NCBI GenBank assembly: GCA_964517435.1
Contig: CAZFEC010000001.1
Location: 7,518 to 71,517 of the forward strand
Length of the DNA stretch: 64,000 bases
Reading direction: 5' to 3'
Source of the DNA: an uncultured Bacteroidia bacterium
GTDB taxonomy: Bacteria > CAIWAD01 > BS150m-G50
The notes beneath the pieces are model-generated. The model worked only from the letters and a program-made list of their open reading frames with translations. It searched no databases and was not told where the DNA came from. Positions 13,685 to 59,034 of this stretch are shown here, piece after piece (the stretch's first letter is position 1; the number at the start of each line of letters is the position of its first letter). Position numbers and translations under genes: made by a program.

Positions 13685-15136
13685 GTGACAGCCAAGATCA
13701 TCGTTGTATCCGCATATGCCCTGATGATAATCGTGGTTGGTTATCTCGGTTTGCGGCGCACCCGCACCTTCAACGACTTCTTTCTGGGCGGTGGCAACAT
13801 CGGTCCCTGGATGACGGCGTTCACCTATGGAACCGCTTATTTCTCCGCCGTACTGTTCATCGGTTTCGCCGGCAAGGTGGGTTGGGGATTCGGTCTGGCC
13901 GGTCTCTGGATTGCCGTCGGTAACACCCTGGTCGGCGTACTGGGCGTCTGGTGGTTGATCGGCCCCCGCGTCAAGCGGATGGCCACGGAATACGAAGTCA
14001 CCACGATGTCTGAATTTTTCGAACGACGCTATGGGAGCCGCTTTTTCAAACTGCTGGCGGCGATCATCATCTTCGTATTCTTCGTTCCCTATTCCGCGGC
14101 GGTCTTCATGGGGCTCTCCTATCTCTTCACCGCCAACTTCGGGATCGGCTACAGCGCCGCGCTGCTCTTCATGGGCGGCTTCACCGCCGTCTATCTGGTG
14201 ATGGGGGGCTACAAGTCGATGGCGATGATCGACGTCATCTTCGGTATGATCATGTGCGCCGGCGTACTCCTGCTGCTGGGCAGCGTCCTGCAGGCGGGGG
14301 GCGGTTACAATCAGCTGCTGACCGACCTGCGCGCTGTCGATCCGCGACTCACCGGTTGGACCGGACCTCCCGGTTTCTGGCCACTGTTCAGTCTGGTCTT
14401 CCTGACCAGCGTGGCGCCGTTCGCCATGCCGCAACTGGTGCAGAAATTCTACGCCGTCCGCGACCGCCGGGCCATCCGCACCGGTATGATCGCTTCCACG
14501 CTGTTCGCCCTGCTGATCGGCGGTATCGGTTACTTCACCGGCGCTACCATCCGCGTCTTTCTCACACCGGAAGGCAATCCGGCTGCTTTTGAAGCCGGCC
14601 GGCCGTTGTTCGACGCCCTGATGCCGGAGCTGATCGCCACGGTGATACCTCCCTATCTCAGCATCCTTATCCTCCTGTTGATTCTCTCCGCTTCCATGTC
14701 GACCCTCGCGGCGCTGGTGTTGATCTCCAGCTCCGCCCTGACACGGGACTTCTATGCCGGGTTCATCAATCCCGCCGTCAGCGACAGCCGGTTGACCCTG
14801 CTGATGCGGCTGGCCAGCGCCGGTTTCATTCTGCTTTCCGTCCTGCTGGCCTACTACCGTCCCGATACGATCGTCACCATTCTGGGCATCTCCTGGGGCG
14901 CTATCGGGTCGGCATTTCTCGGACCATTTCTCTGGGGTCTGTTCACCCGCTTCAGCAATCGGACCGGCGCCCTGAGCGGCGCGCTGCTGTCGCTGGCGGT
15001 CTGCCTGCTGCTCTACTTCCGCGGGCTCTCCTCGCCGGAGGCGGGTACGATCGGGATGATGGTCTCGCTCGTTTCGGTACCGGTGATAAGCCTGCTCACT
15101 ACCGCCAGAAGGGTGAAGAAAGAGGATCTCTCGTAA
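13685..15136 (+). CDS. Sodium:solute symporter family (SSS/SSF) transporter
   Basis: About 13 TM helices; the N-terminal region has the SSF pattern (VGYLGLRRTRTFNDFFLGGGNIGPWMTAFTYGTAYFSAV). The antisense 582-aa track ORF is spurious. Confidence 0.85.
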   Translation: MTAKIIVVSAYALMIIVVGYLGLRRTRTFNDFFLGGGNIGPWMTAFTYGTAYFSAVLFIGFAGKVGWGFGLAGLWIAVGNTLVGVLGVWWLIGPRVKRMATEYEVTTMSEFFERRYGSRFFKLLAAIIIFVFFVPYSAAVFMGLSYLFTANFGIGYSAALLFMGGFTAVYLVMGGYKSMAMIDVIFGMIMCAGVLLLLGSVLQAGGGYNQLLTDLRAVDPRLTGWTGPPGFWPLFSLVFLTSVAPFAMPQLVQKFYAVRDRRAIRTGMIASTLFALLIGGIGYFTGATIRVFLTPEGNPAAFEAGRPLFDALMPELIATVIPPYLSILILLLILSASMSTLAALVLISSSALTRDFYAGFINPAVSDSRLTLLMRLASAGFILLSVLLAYYRPDTIVTILGISWGAIGSAFLGPFLWGLFTRFSNRTGALSGALLSLAVCLLLYFRGLSSPEAGTIGMMVSLVSVPVISLLTTARRVKKEDLS

Positions 15137-15323
15137 AGCACGCAGAGAAGAGTTTATTGTTAACAGCGATGTTGGCGTATTTTCAGTCAAGCTGTTATCC
15201 CGTAAGTACCATAAATCGAATTCTGCGTTCTTAGCGATCTTTGCGAGAGGATTTCTTCTTCATTGCCTCTTCGTCTACTCCTTTTATATTTCTGCTCCCC
15301 GAATCAAAATCAAGGAGCTGGCA

Positions 15324-17291
15324 ATGCCTCAGAATCTGATAGAGAAAATAGTTCAGCGTTTCGCCGTGGGTCTGGCGGATGGTCAACTGGTACACAGCGG
15401 CGACTACCTTTCCCTGCGTCCGGCGCATGTGCTGACTCATGACAATACCGGCGCGGTCATCCCGAAGTTCCGCTCCATCGGTGCCGCCCGCATGGCGAAT
15501 CCCCGCCAGCCGGTTTTCGCCCTCGACCACAATGTGCAGGACGACGGTGAAGCCAACCTGGCCAAATACGAACGCATCGCCGCTTTTGCCTCCGAAATGG
15601 GCGTCGATTTTTATCCGGCCGGCCGCGGTATCGGCCACCAGATCATGTGCGAAGAGGGCTACGCCTGGCCCGGCACGATGGTGGTCGCCTCCGACAGCCA
15701 TTCCAACATGTACGGCGGTCTGGGCTGCCTCGGCACGCCTATCGTGCGTACCGACGCCGCGGCGATCTGGGCGACCGGACGCACCTGGTGGCAGATCCCA
15801 CCGGTGGCGCGCGTCAAGTTGCGCGGTCGTCTCACCGGCTGTGCCAGCGGTAAGGATGTGATTCTGGCGCTCTGTGGCCTGTTCAACGAGGACCAGGTGC
15901 TGAACCAGGCGCTGGAGTTCACCGGTGAAGGGCTGGCGGATCTCTCGCTCGAACAACGGCTGACCATCGCCAACATGACGACGGAGTGGGGCACCCTGGC
16001 GGGGATCTTCCCGGTCGACGCGGTGACGCTCAACTGGTTACGGGAACGGATTGAAGCCGTGGCGATGCGTGGTCCGGCGGGCGTTCCTTCCGACGCGGAT
16101 AATCCCGACGCGCATCCCCGGCTGAACCGCCGGCACCTGGAAGAGCTGGCGGCGGATCGTCTGGAGGCGGATCCGGACGCGGTCTACACGCAGGAGCTGG
16201 AGCTGGATCTGGCTTCGGTCCGGCCGCTGGTGGCGGGACCGCACCATGTGAAAACCGTAACACCGGTCGCGGCTTTCAGCGCGGAGCGGGTGAAGATCAA
16301 CAAAGCCTATCTCGTCTCCTGCGTCAACAGTCGGGGAGAGGATATCGTCGCCGCCGCTGACAAGATACGCGGCAAACAGGTTGCGCCCGGTGTCGAATTC
16401 TACATTGCAGCCGCCTCCGACGAAATTCAGGCGGCGGCTGAACTGAGCGGTGACTGGCAGGCCCTGCTGGACGCCGGCGCCATCGCCCTGCCGCCGGGGT
16501 GCGGCCCCTGTATTGGTCTGGGCCGGGGCCTGCTGGGTCCGGACGAAGTCGGTATTTCCGCTACCAACCGCAACTTCAAGGGCCGCATGGGCGATGCTTC
16601 CGCGCTGGCTTACCTGGCCTCGCCGGCTGTAGTGGCGGCTTCCGCCGCCGCCGGTTACATCGACTGTCCGGACGCAGAGAGCGGCGAACCACAGGGTGAG
16701 ATCCGCAGGTTCGAACCGCCCACAGCCGCTGCCGACGCGACGGAGCTGCTGCCGAACTTCCCGGTCAGAATCGATGCCGAGCTGCTTTTCTGTCCGCAGG
16801 ACAACCTCAACACCGACGGGATCTACCCCGGCAAGTATACCTACCAGGACGACATCACCCCGGAGCAACAGGCGGAGGTGGTGATGGAGAACTACGATCC
16901 CGCCTTCGGGCAGACGGTGAAGACCGGCGACATCCTGGTCGGCGGTTTCAACTTCGGTACCGGCAGTTCGCGTGAACAGGCCGCCACGGCCCTCAAGCAT
17001 CGCGGCATCCGTCTTGTAATCGCCGGCTCCTTCAGCGAGACCTACAAACGTAACGCGCTCAATAACGGACTGCTCGTTATCGAAGCGCCGCGGCTGGTGG
17101 CCGACCTGAAGGAACGCTGCGGCGAAGAGCAGCTGACGCTGCGCACCGGTCTGAGCGCGCGGGTCGACTTCCAGCGCGCCCTGATCGAAGTTGAGGAGGA
17201 CGTATACCCCTTCGCGGCGGTAGGCGTGGCGGCGCAGGAGTTGATCCTCCTGGGCGGACTGGAAAACTGGGTGAAAGAAAAACTGGATTGA
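15324..17291 (+). CDS. Aconitase-family Fe-S hydro-lyase with fused large (LeuC-like) and small (LeuD-like swivel) subunits
   Basis: Aconitase-family cluster-ligand motifs VASDSHSNMYGG, SCVNSRGEDI and GCGPCIGLG. The C-terminal LeuD-like swivel domain has GDILVGGFNFGTGSSREQAA. Substrate is not assignable from sequence. Confidence 0.8.
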   Translation: MPQNLIEKIVQRFAVGLADGQLVHSGDYLSLRPAHVLTHDNTGAVIPKFRSIGAARMANPRQPVFALDHNVQDDGEANLAKYERIAAFASEMGVDFYPAGRGIGHQIMCEEGYAWPGTMVVASDSHSNMYGGLGCLGTPIVRTDAAAIWATGRTWWQIPPVARVKLRGRLTGCASGKDVILALCGLFNEDQVLNQALEFTGEGLADLSLEQRLTIANMTTEWGTLAGIFPVDAVTLNWLRERIEAVAMRGPAGVPSDADNPDAHPRLNRRHLEELAADRLEADPDAVYTQELELDLASVRPLVAGPHHVKTVTPVAAFSAERVKINKAYLVSCVNSRGEDIVAAADKIRGKQVAPGVEFYIAAASDEIQAAAELSGDWQALLDAGAIALPPGCGPCIGLGRGLLGPDEVGISATNRNFKGRMGDASALAYLASPAVVAASAAAGYIDCPDAESGEPQGEIRRFEPPTAAADATELLPNFPVRIDAELLFCPQDNLNTDGIYPGKYTYQDDITPEQQAEVVMENYDPAFGQTVKTGDILVGGFNFGTGSSREQAATALKHRGIRLVIAGSFSETYKRNALNNGLLVIEAPRLVADLKERCGEEQLTLRTGLSARVDFQRALIEVEEDVYPFAAVGVAAQELILLGGLENWVKEKLD

Positions 17292-17324
17292 CGATTACAT
17301 CGAATTAACGCAGAGGACTATAGA

Positions 17325-18692
17325 ATGGAAAAGTCGATTTCTAGGAAGATGGCTGAGTTCGCGGTGGCGTTGAAGTATGAAGATCTGCCGTCCGCGGTGG
17401 TTGCAGAGGTCAAGCGTTATCTCTACGATTCCATTGGTTGCGCCTACGGTTCGATGGGCACCAGTGATGTCGGTATCATGCACCGGATTCTGGGGGAGAT
17501 GGGTGGCGCGCCGGAGGCGACCATTATCGGTTTCGGCGATAAATTGCCGGTGGTGAATGCGACGTTGCTGAACTCGCTGATGATCCGCGCCCTCGACTAC
17601 AACGACATCTACTGGAAGGAAGATCCCTCCCATCCCTCCGATATCATTCCGGCAGCGCTCTGCACCGGGGAGAAGGTGGGCGCCGACATGCAGGCGGTCA
17701 TCACTGCGATCGTGCTGGCCTATGAGTTCGAGCAGCGCCTCTGTGAATTCGCCAAGCCGGGCGTCCGGGAGCGCAAATGGCATCACGCCACCCTGACGCA
17801 GTTCGTCTCGCCGCTGGTGGCCGGCAAAATGCTGGGGCTGACAGTCGACCAGCTGGTGAATGCGATCGGCATCAACGGATCGCACAACCACACCATCGGC
17901 TGTCCCACAGCGGGCAAGCTGACCATGATGAAGAACACCGTCGATCCGATGGCGGTGCAGAGCGGGGTTTTCGCCGCCCTGATGGCCCAGCAGGGCTACA
18001 GCGGTACGGAACAGGTCTTCGAGGGCAAAGAGGGATTCATGGATGTCTTCGGACCCGACTGGGACACCAGCCTGCTCACCGAGGGATTGGGGGACGATTA
18101 CCGCATTCTGCAATGCAGCATGAAGGCCTTCCCGACCGAGGCGCTGACGCACACTCACCTGACCGCCACCCTCAAAGTGATCTGCGATCACGACATCGCG
18201 CCGGAGGATATCGAGGAAGTGCGGGTAACGACCATCGCCCGGGCGGTGGACATTCTATTCGATCCCCAGAAGTACCGTCCAGAGTCGCGGGAGACCGCCG
18301 ATCATTCGCTGCCGTACTGCCTGGCGGCGGCTATCGTCGATCGCCAGATCACTACCGCATCCTTCTCCGATGCCAAGCTGAAGGATGAGCGGATCTGGCA
18401 GGTCATCGACCGCATCAAGGGTGAGGCTTCGGTCGAGTTCGAGCAGATGTTCCCCGCCAAGCAGCCCTCGCGGGTGGTGATCCGGACTATGGACGGCGCG
18501 GAGCATGAACAGTATCTCGAGTATCCCAAGGGGGACCCGCGCGAACCGATGACCCTGGAAGACCTGGAGCAGAAGTTCAACGCCCTGGCGGACGAGCACT
18601 TCGATCCTGAACGCCTGCGGCGCCTGAAGGAGACAATCTTCGACTGTGATACGCTGACGGTCGCTGACTTCATGGCAGAGCTGGTTAAATAG
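17325..18692 (+). CDS. MmgE/PrpD-family protein (2-methylcitrate dehydratase / cis-aconitate decarboxylase superfamily)
   Basis: Full-length (455 aa) match to the MmgE/PrpD fold (LYDSIGCAYGS, LDYNDIYW, SDIIPAALCTGEK). It lies 33 nt downstream of the aconitase-family gene on the same strand. Confidence 0.85.
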   Translation: MEKSISRKMAEFAVALKYEDLPSAVVAEVKRYLYDSIGCAYGSMGTSDVGIMHRILGEMGGAPEATIIGFGDKLPVVNATLLNSLMIRALDYNDIYWKEDPSHPSDIIPAALCTGEKVGADMQAVITAIVLAYEFEQRLCEFAKPGVRERKWHHATLTQFVSPLVAGKMLGLTVDQLVNAIGINGSHNHTIGCPTAGKLTMMKNTVDPMAVQSGVFAALMAQQGYSGTEQVFEGKEGFMDVFGPDWDTSLLTEGLGDDYRILQCSMKAFPTEALTHTHLTATLKVICDHDIAPEDIEEVRVTTIARAVDILFDPQKYRPESRETADHSLPYCLAAAIVDRQITTASFSDAKLKDERIWQVIDRIKGEASVEFEQMFPAKQPSRVVIRTMDGAEHEQYLEYPKGDPREPMTLEDLEQKFNALADEHFDPERLRRLKETIFDCDTLTVADFMAELVK

Positions 18693-18749
18693 AAGCAGGA
18701 GACAGGAGTCGGTATCGGCATCAGGATCGGTATCGATAATGTTCGTCAA

Positions 18750-19502
18750 TTGACCAGGCAATCGATTACCGACATAATCTGCGGCCGCAACGCCGTGCGG
18801 GAGGCTCTGCAGACCGGCACACCGTGTGAGCGGCTGCTGGTGCAGAAGGGCGCTCAATCCGCACCGGTAAAGGTGATTCTCAGCCTGGCGCGGGAGTCGC
18901 AGCTACCGGTCGAATACCTGCCGGCGGCCGCGCTGAAACGTATCACACAGGTAAACTCTCACCAGGGCGTCGCCCTCCAGATCGCCGCCGCGCCGTATTA
19001 TCCCTCCGAGCAGCTCTCCGAGCTGTGCGAGCAGCCGGGACTGCTGCTCTACCTGGACCGGATTCAGGACCCGCAGAATCTGGGCGCCATCCTGCGCTCC
19101 GCCTGTGCCTACGGCGTGCGCGCCGTTATGCTGCCGTTTCGCAAGGCGGTCGGTCTGACCGCCACTGTCGTCAAGGTCAGTCAGGGGGCCGCCCTCCAGC
19201 TGCCTGTGATACGCCTGCGTTCGCCGCTAACCCGGCTGGCGGAGTTGCGTGACGCCGGTTACCGGCTCTACGGTCTGGACAGCCGCGGCTCCGTTCAGTT
19301 GCCACAGGCGTCATTTCCTTCCCGTTGTGTACTGCTGCTGGGCAGCGAAAGCAGCGGCCTCTCCACGCAGCTGAAGAACCTCTGTGATACACTTCTCACC
19401 ATTCCGATGCCGGGCGGCTTCGAGTCGTTGAATGTTTCCGCCGCGGCGGCGATCGCGCTTTATGAATACGCCCGTCAAGCCGGAGGATCCGCGGATGAAT
19501 GA
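18750..19502 (+). CDS. rlmB: 23S rRNA (guanosine-2'-O)-methyltransferase, SpoU/TrmH family (RlmB-like)
   Basis: N-terminal L30e-like substrate-binding region followed by the SPOUT fold (LYLDRIQDPQNLGAILRSACAYGV; LLLGSESSGLS; ESLNVSAAAAIALYE). Confidence 0.8.
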   Translation: MTRQSITDIICGRNAVREALQTGTPCERLLVQKGAQSAPVKVILSLARESQLPVEYLPAAALKRITQVNSHQGVALQIAAAPYYPSEQLSELCEQPGLLLYLDRIQDPQNLGAILRSACAYGVRAVMLPFRKAVGLTATVVKVSQGAALQLPVIRLRSPLTRLAELRDAGYRLYGLDSRGSVQLPQASFPSRCVLLLGSESSGLSTQLKNLCDTLLTIPMPGGFESLNVSAAAAIALYEYARQAGGSADE

Positions 19503-24682: not shown

Positions 24683-26776
24683 TTGCTGCCCATTCGCTTC
24701 ACACGGATCCTTACCACGCTTTACTCGCTGCTACTGGCGTCGATGTTGTTCCTGCCGGAACTGTCGACGGCATTTGACGCCCACCGTGAGGGAGAGATGG
24801 TTCTTGAATACCGTTACCGTTTCAACTGCCAGAACCACGTCCCTGACCATCTGCTCGGCGTGATCGCGGTCAGCGGCAACCGGCTGGTGATCAGCGGGAA
24901 TCAGGGTTTAGCTTTGGTGGATCACTCCCTGCTGACCCCGGCCGGAACCGACATCGCCCTCTCCCGGCTCCTGGGTCTGAACGCCCGCGAGGTCTACCTC
25001 TACCAGCAGAACTATCTATTCGTCAATCTCAACGGCACCGGTGTGAATCCCGAAGCCGGTTTCGCTGTGGTCAGGATCGATGGGGACAACCTGACTCCGG
25101 TGACCATCGTCAGCTCCACCGCGGTGTTTTTCGAGAAGATGGCAATCGCGGGTAACTACTTGTACGTGGCCGCGCACAGCGGTGGTTTCCATGTCTATAG
25201 TATCTCCAATCCCGAAGCACCCTACTTTCGCGCTTCGATCCCGACCGGTTTTGTGAACGCCTATGCGGTCGCGGTCGCGGGTGATACCGCCTATGTCGCT
25301 GACGGCGGCGGCGGCTTGAAAGTAGTCGATATCTCGAATCCGCTATCGCCGCTTTTGGTTGGCGGCGAAACACTGGCTACAGCTGTCGGAACAGCGGAGG
25401 ATGTCACCTGTCGGAACGGGAAGGTCTTCCTGGCGGCGGGGGCGTCCGGTGTGGCGGTTTTCGACGGCGCCGATCTGGCCAGCCGGAGGCTGATCGAAGT
25501 CGGCGGTGCGGCGCGCTCTTTCAGCTGGGTGGGAGATCACCTGGCGGTCTCCACCATTCACGGTATCGCCATTCTGGGCGAGGTCGGTGGTGAGTATCAG
25601 CTGGTGGCGAGTGAGATCACCGGACGGCGTGGTCATAATGCCCGTCTGCGTCTGTGCGGCGCCATCGGCACTGCGGGTGACAGCCTGGTGCTCTGCGCCG
25701 ACTGGAACTGCATGGACGTCTATGAACTGATGGAGTTCAACACCGGCAGTCAACCCGACATCAGTTGCGACCGGCAGCGGATTCGTTTTCATCCTGATGG
25801 CGAATCAGTCACGGCCACCGTCTGGAACAATGGCGCCGGGGATCTTCACATCACCGCCGTCAATGTCAATCCACCTTCCTTCAGCAGCGATTTCACGCCG
25901 GTCACATTGCAGCCGGGTGAGAGTCTGGGATTTCAGATCAGTTATAACGGTTCCGCCCAGCAGGACAGCGGTCTGGTACGGATCATGTCCGACGATCCGG
26001 ACGAAAGTCCGTTTCCGATCCAGATCTTCGGCGAGACAGGATACCTGAATCCAGGGGACCAGGCACTCGACTTCACACTGCCGCTCTATACCCGTGATCA
26101 CGGGACCGGGACCTACAGCTGGGAGCCGTTCACCCTTTCAGAGCAGCTGGGAAAAGTGATCTGGTTCCAGGCCTACGGGAGCTGGTGACCTGCCTGCACA
26201 CCCGCGGTCGCGGATATGCAGAACAGCATTGTCAAGGAATTCACAGGCAACCCGCAGGTGCGGCTGGCACTTTTGAATCCAGGTGACAGCCATAGCGAGA
26301 CCCTGGCCTGGACGCAGCACTTCTGGGACAATAACTATTTACGGGGGAGTTTTCTCTACGACAACGACGGCAGCGTTGACTCGTTGTACGAGCAACCCGC
26401 CACCGGCCTGCCTTTCGGGCGCGGTTTCATCATCGACCAGCAGGGTAATGTCGATCTGCCGTTTTTCGGTCACAACCCGCAGATGGTGATCGCGCGGATC
26501 TATGAACTGTTGGAGGACTCACCTCCGACCGCTCCGCAAAACCTCGCCGCGTTTGTAACCGGCGCGGACCTGGAGCTGATGTGGAGCCCGGTCACCGCCG
26601 ATGTCTGGGGTAATCCGATGACGGTCAACCATTACCGCGTGTATCGCGGCCAGGAGCCGTATTTCACTTGTGATGGTGAGCACCTGCTGGGGGAGACCGC
26701 TGACTGCTTTTATACAGTCGCTGGAGCGATGAGTCAGCCCGGTGGCTTCTTCAAGGTAACCGCAGGTTACCCGTAA
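24683..26776 (+). CDS. Candidate selenoprotein: secreted LVIVD-repeat beta-propeller fused to a TlpA/redoxin-like thiol:disulfide oxidoreductase domain (U-x-x-C) and an FN3-like domain; in-frame TGA (Sec?) at 26186..26188
   Basis: Track ORFs 24683..26188 and 26216..26776 share one frame, separated only by the TGA. The redoxin fold spans the TGA: ...GDQALDFTLPLY...LGKVIWFQAYGSW-[TGA]-PACTPAV...GLPFGRGFIIDQQGNV. The TGA therefore replaces the first Cys of W-C-x-x-C. The N-terminus has a signal-peptide-like helix and LVIVD-like propeller repeats (YVAAHSGGFHVYSISNPEAP, AYVADGGGGLKVVDISNPLSP). Confidence 0.55.
26194..26221 (+). promoter_or_regulatory. SECIS-like mRNA hairpin immediately downstream of the in-frame UGA
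   Basis: CUGCA-ca-CCGC-GGUC-GCGG-aua-UGCAG: a 5-bp lower stem, an internal loop, a 4-bp upper stem and a GGUC apical loop. The upper helix starts 13 nt 3' of the UGA, comparable to the ~11-nt spacing and G/U-containing apical loop of the E. coli fdhF bacterial SECIS. Confidence 0.4.
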
Positions 26777-26830
26777 TCGCAGGTTACCCGTAATCGCAGG
26801 TTACCCGTAATCGCAGGTTACCCGTAATCG
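26761..26830 (+). repeat. Tandem 17-bp direct repeat (cgcaggttacccgtaat, 4 copies) spanning the stop codon, followed by a hairpin
   Basis: Four perfect head-to-tail copies starting at 26761, 26778, 26795 and 26812. The unit is not a multiple of 3 and carries TAA in shifting frames. Each copy has the palindrome-related GGTTACC, and the preceding GGTAACC can pair with it. A hairpin AGTCTCAgcgctgagTGAGACT follows at ~26833..26854. Confidence 0.8.
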
Positions 26831-26894
26831 CCAGTCTCAGCGCTGAGTGAGACTACCGCGTTCGTATGTGTCGGATCCTGATTCAACCTCGGGA

Positions 26895-27916
26895 TCAGGT
26901 AATCCCGAGGTACTTCCGCAGGCTTTCTATCTGGACGTCGGTGCCCAGTACTACCATCTGATCGCCCGTTTCGAGCAGCGTCCTCGCGTTAGCCACCTCC
27001 AGCTGGTCCGCCGCCTGCTTGCGACCGACATGATGAGGATCCCGTCGGTACGCTTGCGGATGTCGGTGTCATGCAGCTGCTTGTCGACGCAGGGGGCGTC
27101 GGGCGGTATTTCAACTTGCACCATGCGGTAGTCGGTCTCGCCGCGGGTGACGAAGGTGTCCAGGAAGTCGGCGACGGCCGGCTGCAGCATCATGGCCGCC
27201 ATGCGGCGCCCGCCGATCAGCGATGGCGAGATCACCTTGTCGGCGCCGGCCTGCTGCAGCTTCTTGTCGGCATGCGGTTCGATTCCCTTGGTGATGATAT
27301 TGAGAGTGGGATTCATTTCACGCGCGGTCAGCACTACGTAGAGGTTGGCCGCATCGCTGTCGAGAGTCGTCAGCAATCCCTGCGCGTGTTCTATGCCGCT
27401 GCGCCACAGGGTCTCCTCATGGGTGACGTCCGCTTCGATCACCAGCAGATCGCCGGCGCGAGCCTCCTCGCACCGTGCCGCGTTCTTCTCGATGATGACG
27501 ATATCGAGGTTGGCACTGGTGAAGGAGCGAGCCAGTTCGGCGCCGACATGGCCGTATCCGCAGATGATATAGTGTTCCCGCAGTTTGCTGATCAGAGTGT
27601 CCATTTTTCTGCCTCGCAAGAAATCCTGAATAACACCGGAGGTGATGGCGGCGGTCAGGGTGGAAAGGATGAACCCCGCCAGACCGACACCGGCCAGAAC
27701 ATAGAAAATCGTGAAATACTGACCCGCGACGCTGAGTTCGTGAACTTCGCCGAAACCGACGGTGGTCAGAGCGATAACCGACATGTAGAACGCATCGAGC
27801 GGACTCTACCCCTCCAGCAGCATGTAGCCGCTGGCGCCGATTCCGATCAGCACCAGCAGCATCGCGGGCAGCGCCAGTAGGCGCGGGCGGGAAATCGAAT
27901 GCGTTTTAAGTATCAT
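26895..27916 (-). pseudogene. RCK/TrkA-domain potassium channel gene, apparently inactivated (in-frame TAG at a conserved Trp plus a probable 3' frameshift)
   Basis: Minus-strand translation from ATG 27916 gives MILKTHSISRPRLLALPAMLLVLIGIGASGYMLLEG-[TAG at 27808..27806]-SPLDAFYMSVIALTTVGFGE (selectivity filter), then a TrkA-N Rossmann motif (IICGYGHVG). K+ channels have EGW-S..DA.Y at this point, so TGG to TAG is inferred. The track ORF 26951..27784 ends in non-protein-like sequence (ASRRRTSWRWLTRGRCSKRAIRW). A +1 frame continues with a typical TrkA-C ending (ANARTLLETGDQMVVLGTDVQIESLRKYLGIT) to a TGA at 26897..26895. Confidence 0.5.
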
Positions 27917-27921
27917 GTCGC

Positions 27922-29475
27922 CTACAGGGGAATGTTGCCATGTTTCTTGCCGGGATTTGCGTCAGCCTTGTTCCGGAGCATCCGGAAGGAGTGTATCACG
28001 TTTTCACGCGTGTTTTCCGGTTCGATGACATCGTCGATGTAACCGCGCTCCGCCGCGCGATAGGGATTGGCGAAATGCTCGGTGTACTGCTTGACGTAGC
28101 CCTCTTCCGCGGCCTTGGGATCGGCGGCGGCGGCGATTTCCTTCTTGAAGATGATCTCAACCGCGCCCTTGGGCCCCATCACGGCGATTTCGGCGGTGGG
28201 CCAGGCCAGGTTGATGTCGCCGCGGATATGCTTTGAACTCATGACGTCGTACGCACCGCCGTACGCCTTGCGGGTAATGACGGTTACCTTGGACACGGTC
28301 GCTTCGCAGTAGGCGTAGAGCAGCTTGGCGCCGTGCGCGATGATGCCGCCCCATTCCTGGTCGGTGCCCGGCAGGAATCCCGGTACATCGACGAAGGTCA
28401 GCAGCGGTATGTTGAAGGCGTCGCAGAAGCGGATAAAGCGCGCCGCTTTGCGGCTGGAATCGCAGTCCAGCACGCCCGCCAGCGCCGCCGGCTGATTGGC
28501 GATCACCCCGACCGACTCTCCGTTCAGCCGGGCGAAACCGATGATGATGTTGACGGCAAAATCGGCGTGCACCTCCATGAAATCACCGTTATCCACCACG
28601 GCGGTGACCACCTCCCGCATCTCGTAGGGCTGGTTGGGATTGTCCGGTATGATACTCTTGAGGCTCTCGTCGCGACGGTTGACAGGATCGCTGCAGGCCT
28701 GGGGCGGTGTGGTTTCGAGGTTGTTCTGTGGAATGAAGGAGAGCAGACGGCGCAGCTGCTGCAGCGCCTCTACTTCCGAGTCTACGGTGAAATGTGATAC
28801 ACCGCTGCGGGTGGCGTGCGTGTCGGCACCACCCAGTTCCTCCGAGGTGACCGTCTCGTGTGTCACGGTTTTCACCACCTTGGGACCGGTCACGAACATG
28901 TAGCTGCTCTTGCGTACCATCATCACGAAATCGGTAATCGCCGGCGAATAGACGGCGCCCCCGGCCGAGGGTCCCATGATGACGGAGATCTGCGGCACGA
29001 CGCCGGAGGCCAGGGTGTTGCGCAGGAAGATATCGGCGTAGGCGCCCAGCGACACCACTCCCTCCTGCACCCGCGCGCCGCCGGAGTCGTTCAGCCCGAT
29101 GATCGGCGCGCCGTTCTTCATCGCCATGTCCATCATCTTGGTGATCTTCTGGCCGTGCGCCTCCGACAGGGAACCGCCGAAGACGGTGAAGTCCTGCGCG
29201 AAGACATAGACCAACCGGTCCCGCACATAGCCGTAACCGGTGACGACTCCGTCGCCGGCGTAGCGCTGCCGGTCCAGCCCGAAATCAGTCGCCCGGTGGG
29301 TGACGAACATATCCAGCTCCCGGAAGGTGCCGGCGTCGAAGAGCAGGTCGATCCGTTCGCGAGCGGTCAGTTTGCCTTTTTCATGCTGGCTGTCGATCCG
29401 CTTCTGACCGCCGCCCAGACGGGCCGCTTCCCGTTTTTCCTGGAGCAGTTTGCGTTTCTCTTCCATCGCTGTCAC
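27922..29475 (-). CDS. pccB: Acyl-CoA carboxylase carboxyltransferase subunit (propionyl-CoA carboxylase beta / methylmalonyl-CoA carboxyltransferase family)
   Basis: Full-length two-domain carboxyltransferase (N- and C-terminal crotonase-like halves; [10 protein letters not shown]; [12 protein letters not shown]; [29 protein letters not shown]). Confidence 0.9.
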
Positions 29476-44629: not shown

Positions 44630-45502
44630 GAACAGATGAGGCCAGTTCTTACCGGTCAGCCAGAGTAGCTTGCGCTGTGCATCCCAGGCAATCCCGTTAA
44701 GAATCTGCTCTTTACCACGCGTCGGGATCAATTCGACCAGAGGACCGGCATCGATGATACCGGTAACCTGACCGTCCTCCGGTGAAATCCGCAGAATGAA
44801 GTCCTCGCCGTAGATATTGGCCAGGATCTGTCCTTCCACCAGTTCCAGTTCATTCAATCCCGGCAGCGGCAGATTGCCCAGCTTGACTTCCACCTGGTAG
44901 ATCAGGCTGAAATCGTTGGGGTCGCGGAAGAAGAGCCGGTGACTGCCGTCGCTCTGTACCAGCAATCCTTCATAAACAGTCAATCCCCAGCCGGCGCTGT
45001 AGTTGCACAGTTCCGGCAGGGGCTCAAGTTGGGCATCCCAGCGCAGCACGATCCCGTTCTGCCAGGTCAGCTGGTAGAAGCATCCTTCCAGCCAGGCCAG
45101 TCCCTCGCCGAAATAATCGGATGGCAACTCCCGCCGCAGGAGTATTTCACCGTTGTCCGGTGACAGCCGGCGCAGCGTCGAGAATCCGGCCAGGCCGGTA
45201 CTCTCGTAGAGATAGCCGTCCGGTGCCAGCACCAGACCCTGGGTGAAGGCATCGGTTGCATGAGGCAGGCTCTCCACCACCTCCAGCTGCAGAAGCGGGA
45301 CGCCGAATTGCTCCGCCAGGACGGCTGGCTGGACAGCCAGTACTATTGACGTCCACAGGAGTGGAAAGCACACCAGCAGTCCGTACCAGCGTAACAAGCT
45401 TCCGATTCTTCTAAGACTGGATTGCATGCTCGAAAGCACTCCTTTACTGCGGTCTATAGCCCTGTCGCGAAAGTTCCATTCCGGAAGCCGCGTACCTATC
45501 AT
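44606..45502 (-). CDS. Glutaminyl-peptide cyclotransferase (plant/bacterial beta-propeller type)
   Basis: N-terminal TM/signal segment; PF05096-like pattern (LPHATDAFTQGLVLAPDGYLYESTGLAGFSTLRRL; FGEGLAWLEGCFYQLTWQNGIVLRWD). Confidence 0.75.
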   Translation of the reverse strand: MIGTRLPEWNFRDRAIDRSKGVLSSMQSSLRRIGSLLRWYGLLVCFPLLWTSIVLAVQPAVLAEQFGVPLLQLEVVESLPHATDAFTQGLVLAPDGYLYESTGLAGFSTLRRLSPDNGEILLRRELPSDYFGEGLAWLEGCFYQLTWQNGIVLRWDAQLEPLPELCNYSAGWGLTVYEGLLVQSDGSHRLFFRDPNDFSLIYQVEVKLGNLPLPGLNELELVEGQILANIYGEDFILRISPEDGQVTGIIDAGPLVELIPTRGKEQILNGIAWDAQRKLLWLTGKNWPHLFLVRLRAE

Positions 45503-46366
45503 GACTGTCTACCAATGAGTCGCGCCGCGATTTACGAATCAAGTGATTCAACCGCGGATCTGCACTGGTGCAGGTCACGTGGAAATGCATCCCGTCAGAT
45601 GTGAAGCTTCAATCGCAGCGTCAGCCAACACGTCAGCCGAAGCGCAAGCCGAAGCGTCAGCCGTTCTGGACAGCTTTCGTCCGGAACTGGACACGATTGT
45701 CGTTTGCTGGGAGCGGGCTGGAGAATATCGATCACCGCAGGCCGCTCTGACAACCGCTCCCGCCGGTGTCAACCAGCGGTGACATCTCAGGCGATCGGCG
45801 GGTTCCCTGCCGTTGTTGATTCTTGATATACAAAGAGTTAACCGACAATTCCGATTGGCATGTTCTTTGTGTACGCACCAATACAGTTGGGTGCCCCCCC
45901 TGTCGCCCCTCCGGTCCTCACTCTCAGGCCCGCATACAACCTCATTGAACTTCATGCGCACCCGCGTTGCAACCACCTTCCACCGGAGGAGGTGGTTGCT
46001 GATCTTCATACGGGCGTATCCGGACAGGCAAGGTCGTGAAGCGGCTTCAGCAGGTGCTTGGGCGAGTTTCCGCTGTAATCCGCCGGCCGGATTTTACTTG
46101 GAAAAGTTATCGTGCAGTTCTAGTTTTTAAGTAGCAAATCCGCGCTTGTGGACCGGTATTATCTCGCATCTCTGAACCAGGAGTGTTCGCAATCGACTGC
46201 TTGCGCCCCCTCCGGGAAAGTGTTACCGGCTCCTGTTCAACAGCCAGTCCCAGGCGTGGTTCCGCGCTCGTCCTTAAGAGGCGACGCTCCCATTTCCAGA
46301 TATTTGCCATAAATCGCATCAAACTCCACGATCCCGTCGTTGCGATCTGGAGCTAAAGGAGTCAGT

Positions 46367-53833: not shown

Positions 53834-54630
53834 GCCTGCTGCACTCTCAGGGTCGGGGTGATGTCGCCGGCCTCCAGCAACAGGGCCGTGAGGTAGGTGC
53901 GCAGCTGCTCGCCGTCGCTGACCGGTACGAAGTCGCCGGCCAGCGCCAGGGTGATGTGACCGGTTTCCTCCGAGACGATGACCGTCACCGCGTCGGATTC
54001 CTCCGAAACACCGAGACCGGCGCGATGACGCGTGCCGCAGATGGTTTCGAACTGCGGATTGCTGGAGATGGGCAGGGTGCACTTCGCCGCCACGATCCGG
54101 TTGCGTTCGATGATGACGGCTCCGTCATGCAGGGGAGTACGGGGAAAGAAGAGCGAGACCAGCAGCGGCGCTTTGACCGCCGCATCGATTCGAATACCGG
54201 TTTCGGTGATCATCTTAAGGCCGACCTCGCGGCAGATCACGATCAGGCCGCCATACTGGCGCCGGGCGAGTTCCTCTGCCGCGGCGGCCACTTCCTCGAT
54301 CGGATCAGCCTCCGAGATGTTGAAGAAACGCCGGAAGATGTTCGTCTGTCCGAGTTGAATCAGGAAGCGCCTCAGTTCCGGGTGGAAGATGATGATCAGC
54401 GCGATCACCCAGATGGCGGCGAAATTCTGGAAGATCACCGACATGACAGAGAGGTTGAAGATGCGGACCAGGAAGGAGAGCACCAGCAGCAGCACCAATC
54501 CCGTGATCATGGCGGATGCCCGTGTACCGCGCACCAGTCTCAACAGCTGGTAATAGAGCGCGCCGACCAGCAGTACGTCGAGCAGATCCCAGATGGTGAA
54601 GGGGATGAAACCGACATGGAACAGTGTCAT
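53830..54630 (-). CDS. cdaA: Diadenylate cyclase (c-di-AMP synthase) CdaA
   Basis: Three N-terminal TM helices and a DAC domain with conserved motifs (LHDGAVIIERNRIVAAKCTLP; GTRHRAGLGVSEESDAVTVIVSEETG). Confidence 0.85.
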   Translation of the reverse strand: MTLFHVGFIPFTIWDLLDVLLVGALYYQLLRLVRGTRASAMITGLVLLLVLSFLVRIFNLSVMSVIFQNFAAIWVIALIIIFHPELRRFLIQLGQTNIFRRFFNISEADPIEEVAAAAEELARRQYGGLIVICREVGLKMITETGIRIDAAVKAPLLVSLFFPRTPLHDGAVIIERNRIVAAKCTLPISSNPQFETICGTRHRAGLGVSEESDAVTVIVSEETGHITLALAGDFVPVSDGEQLRTYLTALLLEAGDITPTLRVQQA

Positions 54631-55331
54631 GCCTTGTCTCCCTGACTGAGGGTCGGTTTGAATTCGGCCAGGTAAAGCGGTTCCGCGGCGGCCAGATCGC
54701 GGCTGCCGTGACGCGCTATCTCCTCGCAGCCCAGGTGATGGAGCCAGGCCAGCGACAAGCCCGGTTGGGGCGCCGGCAGCAGGTTGAAACGGCAGCTGTC
54801 CAGCCGGGCGTCGACCTCCGGCAGTACCCCCGCGAACTCACCGACCAGGTAGGCCGCGTCGGGCAGCCGTCCTAAATCATCCGCTTTCAGGACAAACGGT
54901 TCCGCCGTGCGCTGCACGATCGAATCCCGCTTGCGGTAGGCAGCGGTGAATACGGCATCGCGACGGTAATAAACACAGGGATAGATGTCGGCCACCGGGG
55001 CCGTTACGTTGCGGGCCAGGGTGTCCAAAGTAGAAACGCCGGTGTATTCAACCGGCGTCTCGTTCTCCTCCGTGTAGAAAAGACCCTTCAGAAAAGCGAG
55101 TCCGACCCGCAGACCGGTAAACGAGCCGGGACCGTGCGCGAGGATCACGCGGTTCAGCTCCGGTAACGTCAGCTCCAGTTCCGCCAGCATCGCCGCCAGA
55201 TAGTCGCCGAGAACCTCGCCGGAGCGACGCAGATTGCCCCAGCTTCGCTCGAGTGCCATTTCCCCCTCCTGGTAGATCGCCAGGGCAGAGGGGGCGGTAG
55301 CACAGTTTAGAACCAGTGTGTTGCGGCTCAT
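54627..55331 (-). CDS. tsaB: tRNA threonylcarbamoyladenosine biosynthesis protein TsaB (YeaZ-like, inactive Kae1/TsaD paralogue)
   Basis: ASKHA-fold N-terminal half only (~230 aa) with a Gly-rich TsaB-like pattern (RVILAHGPGSFTGLRVGLAFLKGL). Stop overlaps the cdaA start. Confidence 0.65.
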   Translation of the reverse strand: MSRNTLVLNCATAPSALAIYQEGEMALERSWGNLRRSGEVLGDYLAAMLAELELTLPELNRVILAHGPGSFTGLRVGLAFLKGLFYTEENETPVEYTGVSTLDTLARNVTAPVADIYPCVYYRRDAVFTAAYRKRDSIVQRTAEPFVLKADDLGRLPDAAYLVGEFAGVLPEVDARLDSCRFNLLPAPQPGLSLAWLHHLGCEEIARHGSRDLAAAEPLYLAEFKPTLSQGDKA

Positions 55332-56427
55332 CGGCTGAACTTTCGGTTATCAGGTGGATCCAGCTGCAATATGATTATTATCGACAGACGAACCAAGGAT
55401 ATTTGGTGATATGCACCAGGTTGGTTCTTTTTTGGAGGAGCAAGAAAGAATGCTCACAGAACCACGAATTCGAATCTGCAATTTCTGAACTGACTTGTTG
55501 GCATCATCGCCTTGCGTTTGTTGGGCTCATACATTAACGCGAATAGGATTGGTATCTTTTCGGGATTCGGAATCGGTATCGGAATTCGGTTTTCAACAGC
55601 AGTCAATTAACCGCGAATGAACGCGCTTTCGAACCTGTAACGGTTGAATAAACCCGCACGATAGTCTGCCTTGTGCCGAAGGCACTGGAATAGACGCTAA
55701 TTTGGGTTAGTATGGTGCCGGGATTCGGAATCGGGATCGGTATCGGTCCTAGAAACGTCATTAATGAGAGATAATGTCTGGTGTTGAGCCCGAAAACAGC
55801 AGGTGCGTAAACAGTCGCGTTCATTCTCGGTTCAATAGGTAATCTCAATCGAATGCCCGAGGTCGAGGCCGGAGCAATAGCAATTCGCGACCATTCGTGG
55901 TTCCAGGATATCCCAGCTTCACATTAACCCATCTCACATAAAGCAATCCTTCACCGATATCCCAAATATCGTTGCTGGCCAACGAGATCGCGCGTCATCC
56001 AATCTCCCTGTCTTGAGATCGCTCCCATTTGTTTACATAATATATCTTATGCGAACATACTGATATTTTAAACCGGCTGCCATAGCGCCTCCTGCGCTCT
56101 TCCCTGTCGTGTGGAAAACCGGTTTGATAACTCGGTTTTTTCATTTTTTTGACGATTCCCCCGATTTTCCGGTTATCCGGTCTCTGAAAGCGTGACGAGG
56201 CGGCGCCTGGGATAGATCCCACTCCGAGCAGCTCGCCGGAACCAATACCTGTCCCCCGGCCCAATTTTCGTAAAAAGTTGACATGCGAATCCTTTTTTCC
56301 GAAATTGGGTTAAATACCGGTCCGATACTGAAATCCCCCGGTAAGCGCCCGGAATGGCTCAAACCTGATCGCAACAGGCTGCAGATTCGCACTTGATCAT
56401 CATCGTGGTGATTTCATTCGCGCTTGA

Positions 56428-59034
56428 ATGCGACGCGACCCTGCAAAACAGATGGAATCCAGCTTGACGGAACACCCTGCCCTTTGCCTCGCCGATAAGT
56501 TCTACCAGCTTTCCTTCCCTTCATTCCTTTCAGCTGTAAATCGTGTCACAACCTTTGCTATCTCTATAATTATCATTCTGTTGGGACTGCTGCCGTTCTG
56601 TCCACCTGCTTTCTCGCAAACCGAGGGTGCTCAGACCGACAGCATCTACGCCGTCAACCTCCTGCCGGTCGCTGACTGGCAGTTCGTTGCCGATAGTAAA
56701 GCTGCGGGTGATGAAGGCAAATCTGTTTCACTTCCCTTTATCCTTTTAGACGGATTGGCGCAACAGTTCAATCTCAGTTGCGAGTTCTCGCTTCCGCCGG
56801 ACAGCAACCGTATCTACCTGCTACGATTCGACGGCATCAATCACGCCTGCCGCATCACTATCAACGATCGCTTTCTCCACAGTCACGCCCTGGGCAACGC
56901 CCCATTCCAACTGGAAATCCCGGGTGAAATGCTGCGTCTGGGAGAGTCCAATGAACTGCGACTGAACATCGACAACTACCTAGACTACAAGCGTACAGTC
57001 CCTTCCCTGAGCGGCAACCAGCAACCCCGCAATGAAACCGGTCTCATACGCACTGTCGAACTGCTGTCGATGTCGGAGGTATACATCAGTGCCATCGAGC
57101 TGTTCCAGGAGCCGCTGTCCCGGGACCGCCGCCGGCTGGAAGCGCGGGTGACCCTGCGCAATGGAGCAACTGCCGTCGGTCTGGCGCCGGCCGTTGAATA
57201 CCAGATCACGCTGGAAGTGGAGGGCAGATCCACGCGCCTGACTGTGCCGCTGCACCCGCAGTCGACCGCGGTCAGCAGTCTGGAGTTGACCCTGCGCGAT
57301 GTGCCGACCTGGAGTATCAGCGAGCCGCGACTGGTGCCGGTGCGGTTCATTCTACACGATCCGGACGGCGTCCGACTGGATCAACGCTCGTTCGCTTACG
57401 GTTTTCGCGATCTGGAGGTGAACGAAGGTGAGCTGCAACTCAACCGGGAACCGTTCGAGTTGCAGGGGCTGGTCTACCATCTCGATGGCGAGGCGGGACA
57501 GCTGCTGACGGAACAGCAGCTGACCAATGATGTGGAGCTGATCAAGAATCTGGGTTTCAACACGATCCTGCTCCAGGGATCCTGCGCGCCGCGCGAACTG
57601 CTGAGAGTCTGCGATCGCAGCGGGCTTTTCGTGATCGACAACCTGCCGGTCGAGCACCCCACCCGTGCGCAGCTGCAGAGTGAGCCGTTCAATCAGGCGG
57701 CGGCGGCCTACCTGGTGTCGCTGCTGGAGCGGGATTGCAGCCATCCCTCCCTGCTGGCGCTGAACCTGCTTACCGGTGGTCAGCTGGGCACTGAGGCCAC
57801 GGAAACCTACCTGGCACAGCTGGCCGCGGTCCTGCCGGATCGGGCGCCCTTGACCGCCGGGCGTTTCATCACCGTCACCCACGCGCCGGGTCCCTTTCCC
57901 GCTTTGCTGTTTCTGGACGGACGGCAACCGATGGCGGAATTGGCACTGCAACCGGATCAGGTGTGGTTGGCGGGCGGCATCGGCCTGCTGGCGGAGGCGG
58001 ACAACCGCACCGGTTACGCCGATCCCTTTTCGGAGATCCATCAGGCGCACGCACTCGATCTGCTGTTACAGGAATATGCCGCCAGCGTGGGCTACGCCGG
58101 CCTGCTGCTGCACAGTTTCTCCGACTGGCACACCGCCCATCCGCTGCTCTGGGGCACCGATCCGCGCGATCTCAGCCTGCGGACGGACGGGCTCTACACC
58201 ATCGACCGTCAGGAGAAAATCGCCGCCCGGGTGGTGCATTCCCATCTCACCAGCGCCGCGCTGCCACCCCTGACCCGCGGCGATTACCAGGCTACCACTC
58301 CGATCTGGCCGGCGATCATTCCCCTCCTGCTGCTGCTCTTCCTGGTGATCGCCATGAAGCACAACAACATCCTGGCGCTCAATCTCAAACGCTCCCTGGT
58401 CCATGTCGAGGGTTTTTATCTCGACATCCAGGCCCGCCGCATTCAGCAACAGGGCCAGGGAATCTTCATTGCGCTGATCAACAGCCTGATGCTGGCTTCG
58501 CTTCTGGCGGTCACCTTCTACTTCTTCCGCAAGAACCTGCTCTTCGACGAGATCCTGACCCTGCTCATGCCGTACGCCGGTTTCAAGACCCTTTTCATAC
58601 GCCTGAGCTGGCAACCGCTCCTGATGGCGCTCTACAGCGGCCTGGTTCTCTTCCTGCTGCAGTGGATCACCGGTCTGCTTCTCTTTCTGCTGGGGCTCAT
58701 CTTCGGCAGCACCACGACGCTGCGGCAGATCCTGCAGTACCTCTTCTGGTCGGCCGCACCCCTGCTCTTCCTGCTCCCGGTCGCGGTGGCCGCCGGTCAC
58801 CTGCTGGCGATTTCAAGCGGTACGGTCATCCTGCTGCTGTTGCTGGCGATCTTCGCGCTCTGGCACCTGGTACGCCTCTACCGGATCTCGCATTTCGCCT
58901 ACCCCGCCCATCACGGCAAGGTGATCGCGGTACTGCTGGTGCTGTTGGTGCTGCTACTCGCGGGATTCTTCTTCTACTACGAAACCGGCCTGGCTTTCAC
59001 CGACCGACTGCGGTATCTGTTGGGGGTGTATTGA
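56428..59034 (+). CDS. Membrane protein with an N-terminal GH2-like (beta-galactosidase-fold) extracytoplasmic domain and a C-terminal Yip1-like polytopic membrane domain
   Basis: Signal/anchor helix, then a GH2 sugar-binding jelly-roll (YLLRFDGINHACRITINDRFLHSHALGNAPFQLEIPGEMLRLGESNELRLNIDN), an Ig-like sandwich and a TIM-barrel start (LNREPFELQGLVYHLDGEAG...NLGFNTILLQGSCAPRELLRVCDRSGLFVIDNLPVE). The canonical acid/base NE motif is not evident (HPSLLALNLLTGG). The C-terminal ~280 aa are 5-6 Leu-rich TM helices. Confidence 0.55.
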   Translation: MRRDPAKQMESSLTEHPALCLADKFYQLSFPSFLSAVNRVTTFAISIIIILLGLLPFCPPAFSQTEGAQTDSIYAVNLLPVADWQFVADSKAAGDEGKSVSLPFILLDGLAQQFNLSCEFSLPPDSNRIYLLRFDGINHACRITINDRFLHSHALGNAPFQLEIPGEMLRLGESNELRLNIDNYLDYKRTVPSLSGNQQPRNETGLIRTVELLSMSEVYISAIELFQEPLSRDRRRLEARVTLRNGATAVGLAPAVEYQITLEVEGRSTRLTVPLHPQSTAVSSLELTLRDVPTWSISEPRLVPVRFILHDPDGVRLDQRSFAYGFRDLEVNEGELQLNREPFELQGLVYHLDGEAGQLLTEQQLTNDVELIKNLGFNTILLQGSCAPRELLRVCDRSGLFVIDNLPVEHPTRAQLQSEPFNQAAAAYLVSLLERDCSHPSLLALNLLTGGQLGTEATETYLAQLAAVLPDRAPLTAGRFITVTHAPGPFPALLFLDGRQPMAELALQPDQVWLAGGIGLLAEADNRTGYADPFSEIHQAHALDLLLQEYAASVGYAGLLLHSFSDWHTAHPLLWGTDPRDLSLRTDGLYTIDRQEKIAARVVHSHLTSAALPPLTRGDYQATTPIWPAIIPLLLLLFLVIAMKHNNILALNLKRSLVHVEGFYLDIQARRIQQQGQGIFIALINSLMLASLLAVTFYFFRKNLLFDEILTLLMPYAGFKTLFIRLSWQPLLMALYSGLVLFLLQWITGLLLFLLGLIFGSTTTLRQILQYLFWSAAPLLFLLPVAVAAGHLLAISSGTVILLLLLAIFALWHLVRLYRISHFAYPAHHGKVIAVLLVLLVLLLAGFFFYYETGLAFTDRLRYLLGVY

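Follow-up and report, generated by a model that had tools for sequence, protein, structure and literature searches.

Immediately downstream of a carboxyltransferase gene in the 64-kb stretch of DNA analysed here (the window) lies a minus-strand gene that reads as a K+ channel and is interrupted twice, once by an in-frame TAG and once by an apparent frameshift. A first-pass annotation, made from the letters of the window, took it for a decaying gene with two independent lesions, observed that an adjacent gene also contains an internal stop (TGA), and held that a local assembly problem had to be excluded before either gene was interpreted. The question raised by the locus is whether the interruptions are real and, if they are, whether they mark a gene that has died, one that is decoded in an unusual way, or one from which some useful fragment is still made.

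Direct reading and three-frame translation place the start of the gene at ATG 27916..27914 on the minus strand, from which 36 sense codons (MILKTHSISRPRLLALPAMLLVLIGIGASGYMLLEG) lead into TAG 27808..27806. Past this stop the same frame resumes as SPLDAFYMSVIALTTVGFGE... and runs on through TrkA_N and an initial portion of TrkA_C. Beyond ...GILIMSV, the Val codon of which occupies 27025..27023, frame 0 passes into 23 nonsense codons (ASRRRTSWRWLTRGRCSKRAIRW) that end at TAG 26953..26951, and the homologous channel C-terminus (RKQAADQLEVANARTLLETGDQMVVLGTDVQIESLRKYLGIT), with its stop TGA at 26897..26895, sits in the -1 (= +2) frame. When the repaired protein was compared with the window by tblastn, two HSPs were obtained, 27916..27023 and 27023..26898, and the fact that base 27023 is common to both points to a single missing nucleotide. 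The first-pass annotation was thus right about the nonsense tail and about a TrkA-C terminus in another frame, although that frame is -1/+2 rather than +1; likewise, the gene ends at 26895 and not at 26891 as it had proposed. Because the frame is interrupted at codon 37 by the TAG and after codon 298 by the 1-nt deletion, so that no single uninterrupted frame spans the gene, we filed the locus as a pseudogene of the MthK-like 2TM RCK K+ channel family. Its parts and the gene upstream of it are listed below, where L010 and L011 denote the two genomes that carry its closest intact orthologs.

27922..29475, minus strand: putative upstream operon partner, a carboxyltransferase (PccB/methylmalonyl-CoA carboxyltransferase-like) ending ...GNIPL-TAG; Pfam Carboxyl_trans 2-493 of 493, E = 1.5e-198, and synteny with L010 and L011
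27809..27916, minus strand: N-terminal channel fragment, the M1 helix up to ...GYMLLEG; aligns with ...GTTGYMLLEGW of the orthologs
27806..27808, minus strand: lesion 1, in-frame TAG for a conserved Trp codon (TGG to TAG transition); from the ortholog codons and the homolog column
27023..27805, minus strand: main body in frame 0, with pore helix, selectivity filter TTVGFGE, M2 helix, TrkA_N (RCK Rossmann domain, CGYGHVG) and the first ~34 residues of TrkA_C; from Pfam and a tblastn HSP
27022..27023, minus strand: lesion 2, site of a single-base deletion, between ATG TCG GTC and GC AAG CAG; from ortholog comparison and the HSPs that share base 27023
26951..27022, minus strand: frame-0 nonsense tail ASRRRTSWRWLTRGRCSKRAIRW and premature stop TAG 26953..26951, where the 277-aa ORF of gene callers ends; from translation
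26895..27023, minus strand: displaced last 42 codons of TrkA_C in the -1 frame (RKQAADQLEVANARTLLETGDQMVVLGTDVQIESLRKYLGIT), with stop TGA 26897..26895; 51-65% identical to the L010 and L011 C-termini

Only 5 nt separate the TAG stop of PccB from the channel ATG, and the two genes are probably co-transcribed. The short fragment at 27809..27916 was called as a 36-aa gene of its own in eight of the nine copies of the locus that we fetched from other assemblies. The 277-aa ORF (26951..27784) begins at Met45, inside the pore helix, and its TrkA_C is truncated; as it comes without M1, its product would be unable to form a 2TM pore.

The family to which the gene belongs was examined using the repaired protein, in which both lesions were mended in silico. 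Pfam places Ion_trans_2 at residues 19-92 (profile 2-78 of 79, E = 4e-14) and TrkA_N at residues 116-231 (profile 1-116 of 116, E = 1.5e-31), the latter with CGYGHVG as its GxGxxG motif. TrkA_C is found at residues 265-339 (profile 1-71 of 71, E = 5e-13) only once the frameshift is mended. Between two TM helices lies TTVGFGE, which agrees with the K+ selectivity filter pattern T-V-G-[YF]-G, and residues 10-337 align end to end with positions 12-334 of 336 in MthK chains (8djb, 1lnq) at E-values of 4e-29 to 9e-29. Taken together, the Pfam domains and the end-to-end alignment identify the gene, as read from its sequence, as an MthK-like channel with two transmembrane helices and a single RCK unit (Ion_trans_2, TrkA_N and TrkA_C). 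Translation and Pfam thus agree with the earlier description of an RCK/TrkA-type K+ channel that starts at ATG 27916 with a TM helix and goes on to a selectivity filter and a TrkA-N domain.

A search of 5.8 billion proteins returned one near-identical match, P0001, which is exactly the truncated 277-aa ORF 26951..27784 with its nonsense tail included. Intact proteins of 340-342 aa came next, at 65-68% identity, and a Candidatus Delongbacteria MAG was the source of one of them; no intact channel allele above 68% identity was found among the 5.8 billion proteins, and the GTDB representative genomes gave no match closer than the 68%-identical orthologs. The two genomes in GTDB that carry these orthologs are L010, Ca. 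Delongbacteria BS150m-G50 (P0002, JADHUQ010000026), which is a Black Sea MAG (PMC8067304), and L011 (P0004, CAZCRT010000004). Both proteins come from Ca. Delongbacteria MAGs and are annotated as 'potassium channel protein', and the source of the window is an uncultured, marine-type bacterium related to Candidatus Delongbacteria. The gene order GlgP, PccB carboxyltransferase, channel and LTD is common to the window, L010 and L011, with an LVIVD/AhpC gene before LTD in the window and L011 only, and this shared order makes the L010 and L011 channels positional orthologs.

Although the window copy has the same Pfam architecture and the same GlgP-PccB-channel-...-LTD neighbourhood as these orthologs, at 65-68% amino acid identity, it differs from them at precisely the two points of interruption. 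In both orthologs the Trp is encoded by TGG and the 340-342 codons run on in one frame, whereas the window has TAG and one base fewer. At the stop site the window reads GGG TAG AGT, L010 GGG TGG AGC and L011 GGT TGG AGT, a difference at the Trp codon of one G>A transition, and of 119 homologs, 102 have W in the corresponding column. Thus, the claim that the TAG stands at a conserved Trp holds. At the shift site the orthologs read ATG TCG GTC AAG AAG CC. (MSVKKP), where the window has ATG TCG GTC GCA AGC AGG; its -1 frame gives MSV followed by RKQ, with one base lost relative to the orthologs. The comparison with orthologous genes that had been proposed as a check therefore found intact, single-frame relatives, and the earlier view of a decaying gene with two independent lesions is borne out by a TGG-to-TAG change and a 1-nt deletion measured against syntenic copies.

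Apart from the lesions, the repaired protein is about as well preserved as its intact relatives. It deviates at 3 of the 42 columns with at least 90% conservation among 119 homologs, compared with 2-3 for the closest intact orthologs. With outgroup proteins it shares 50, 48 and 42% identity, 0-4 points less than the intact clade (52-54, 49-51 and 42%). Neither the relative-rate nor the conserved-column test for relaxed constraint uncovered a clear excess of change in the repaired protein; dN/dS is unsuited to this comparison, as synonymous sites are saturated at 68% amino acid identity. Inactivation of the channel appears to be recent, in view of a repaired protein as conserved as the intact orthologs.

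We conclude that the locus is very likely a true pseudogene of recent origin, derived from a gene for an MthK-like K+ channel with two transmembrane helices and RCK gating. According to this interpretation, a G>A transition would have turned the codon of a conserved pore-helix Trp from TGG into TAG, so that translation would end after 36 residues with M1 alone, and a one-base deletion at 27023 would have put the last 42 codons of TrkA_C out of frame. The two mutations would be independent of each other; both are found in the consensus from every population of the source organism that was sampled, and no full-length channel would be expected from the locus. We infer from these features of the gene that its function has been lost.

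Of the readings in which the gene retains some use, the one that survives best accepts that the channel is dead and proposes that an internal start, such as Met105 in RGRKMD, still gives a soluble RCK/TrkA_N fragment that works together with a different partner. In MthK an internal start, Met107, is known to give rise to a soluble RCK domain, and Met105 lies near its position. This precedent is joined by RCK-only PDB entries among the structure matches, by the position of TrkA_N (residues 116-231), which neither lesion hits, and by the proximity of PccB, 5 nt away, with which the gene is probably still co-transcribed. Nevertheless, TrkA_C loses more than half its length to the frameshift, which leaves the RCK module itself truncated; no partner channel or paralog of the channel was found within the 64-kb window; and the clonal population yields no evidence of selection. 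We consider such a fragment improbable. Less probable again is that the lesions are tolerated or bypassed, through near-cognate Trp or Gln readthrough at UAG-A together with low-level slippage, or that an internal Met serves as the start for the undamaged TrkA_N part, which would then act as a free RCK regulator. Under either scenario the gene would not be dead but down-tuned or repurposed, and it would be kept in the population.

Further still from the pseudogene that we favour is programmed recoding, according to which a regulated full-length channel would be made by decoding the TAG, through pyrrolysine, Trp readthrough or a suppressor tRNA, and by a programmed -1 frameshift that brings the C-terminus back. 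The repaired protein is indeed wholly family-like and free of further decay, and the shift needed is -1, the direction of most programmed frameshifts. However, TAG is an ordinary stop in the source genome, since it ends 13 of the 43 predicted complete genes of the window (30%; TGA ends 23 and TAA 7), including the adjacent PccB directly upstream, where the GNIPL that precedes it is a typical C-terminal motif of the carboxyltransferase family. Moreover, neither event is conserved: both orthologs have TGG and a single frame, and in neither L010 nor L011 is there an in-frame TAG or a two-frame arrangement. Inspection of the junction C ATG TCG GTC GCA AGC revealed no slippery heptamer of the form X XXY YYZ, and the 101 nt at 26960..27060 around the shift fold no better than shuffled sequences (z -0.16), which speaks against a stimulatory structure. 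A tRNA scan of the 64-kb window found no tRNA at all, and hence no suppressor, Sec or Pyl tRNA there, and no precedent is known for pyrrolysine at a conserved Trp. Nothing in the window reached the Rfam gathering threshold, and at a permissive threshold 26100..28000 gave only chance-level matches, with no SECIS or other family among them. With TAG as a normal stop, lesions that are not conserved and a junction lacking shift signals, programmed readthrough, pyrrolysine and programmed frameshifting are all unsupported, and we regard recoding of the channel as highly improbable.

The suggestion that other genes be searched for in-frame TAG codons at conserved positions was followed within the 64-kb window, where each candidate proved to be either separate genes or ORFs that are antisense to, or overlap, real ones. 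The most conspicuous was a chain of same-frame ORFs, 15117..17291, 17292..18692 and 18693..19502, which was rejected as a stop-interrupted gene because it consists of three genes, each with its own ATG. These genes (15324..19502, plus strand) encode an aconitase family protein, an MmgE/PrpD protein and a SpoU methyltransferase, have complete domains and are separated by TGA 17289..17291 and TAG 18690..18692; that they share a frame, and so mimic a long gene with in-frame stops, is a coincidence. The remaining same-frame ORF pairs split by TAG are those that run antisense to, or overlap, real genes.

All of this presupposes that the lesions are real, and here independent assemblies are informative. 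In JGI, ENA and Logan data, 23 contigs are listed for the truncated 277-aa product P0001. We fetched nine of the loci, from four JGI metagenomes (3300009320, 3300009431, 3300013117 and 3300013111), three ENA assemblies of different BioSamples and two Logan per-run assemblies, and all nine are 100% identical to the window across 26891..27920, both lesions included. The window is identical to the locus on the 246,979-bp contig Ga0117909_1000018 of JGI 3300009320 (L003). Outside the channel gene the loci do differ: three carry a SNP at 29463, one carries a SNP at 29806, four have one unit fewer of a 17-bp tandem repeat, and further loci have a scaffold gap or a contig end within this repeat. Such differences indicate independent consensus sequences of a nearly clonal population, and the sampled assemblies, with approximately one SNP per 7 kb, cannot speak to the age of the lesions or to their spread across strains. 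Finding the same lesions in nine of nine loci that differ elsewhere makes a local assembly error very unlikely, and both lesions can be taken as real; the precaution urged at the outset has in this way been taken. Neither lesion lies within a homopolymer. When the ~40 other predicted genes of the window were compared with Pfam, their matches were full or near-full length, or partial or repeated as expected for the family, with one ORF lacking a match, and the channel is the sole broken gene found in the 64 kb. That the true gene is intact, with the TAG and the missing base being local consensus errors, is an idea that draws on the presence of two lesions inside 800 bp, on the TGA-interrupted gene that adjoins them and on the tandem repeat 60 nt downstream, which does break some assemblies, but it has as little to recommend it as recoding, given an identical sequence from three pipelines (JGI, ENA third-party and Logan per-run) and several samples with consensus differing at other positions, the lack of a homopolymer at either lesion, the apparently intact state of ~40 other genes and the conservation of the neighbour's TGA across species.

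Because the local sequence can be trusted, that TGA may be read on its own merits. The plus-strand gene 24683..26776 encodes an LVIVD-repeat protein with a C-terminal AhpC/TSA (thioredoxin-fold) domain, the first redox residue of which is encoded by TGA (SW-U-PAC). The codon, at 26186..26188, stands within ...FQAYGSW-TGA-PACTPAVADMQNSI..., and both the TGA and its context recur in the L011 ortholog, which is 67% identical over 661 residues. With Cys put in its place, Pfam finds the AhpC/TSA domain at residues 457-590, and since this domain spans the site, the TGA corresponds to the opening U of a UxxC redox motif. It is followed by a hairpin, CCGC-GGUC-GCGG, with its GGUC loop beginning 21 nt after the U of the UGA (fold z -1.9), which in spacing and loop would resemble the SECIS of E. 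coli fdhF. Given the conserved TGA, the UxxC motif in AhpC/TSA and the hairpin, the codon very probably does encode selenocysteine and has nothing to do with the lesions of the channel; the link between the two stops that the first-pass annotation had entertained is not supported.

Several further features of the window were recorded in passing. Public gene calls split the selenoprotein gene into ORFs of 481/501 aa and 186 aa, and this gene, present between channel and LTD in the window and L011, is absent from that position in L010. The 17-bp tandem repeat (GTAATCGCAGGTTACCC) occupies 26756..26831 in 4.5 copies with 98% matches. It begins within the final codons of the selenoprotein gene and fills the convergent intergenic space before the 3' end of the channel. 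Its copy number varies among samples, with one unit fewer in L001, L002, L004 and L006, and it breaks assemblies, as seen from an N-gap in L005 and contig ends in L007-L009. Elsewhere, an intergenic stretch of ~1.1 kb (55332..56427) contains no convincing ORF, tRNA or Rfam match and is flanked by a TsaB-like gene (54627..55331, minus strand) and a large membrane/glycosyl-hydrolase-like gene (56428..59034, plus strand); a second gap of ~1 kb lies at 45398..46366.

The biological weight of the finding is small, as it concerns one K+ channel gene recently dead in one uncultured lineage. For annotation, the two lesions should be recorded as one pseudogene and not as two or three small ORFs, whereas 'proteins' of 36 aa and 277 aa are at present listed in public calls. 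Compared with MthK, the Ca2+-gated K+ channel of Methanothermobacter (PDB 1LNQ, 3RBZ), the gene shares architecture and length, with M1, pore helix, filter, M2 and one RCK unit made of TrkA_N and TrkA_C, but sequence kinship is only distant, and the window copy, broken by a stop and a frameshift, would not be a functional member of the family. Set beside ordinary bacterial pseudogenes that arise by a nonsense mutation and an indel, it displays no distinctive feature: one transition creates a stop, a one-base deletion shifts the frame, and the rest is well preserved, which is the classic signature of recent inactivation. In our view the locus is simply a young pseudogene of the ordinary kind, in a channel family that is well known.
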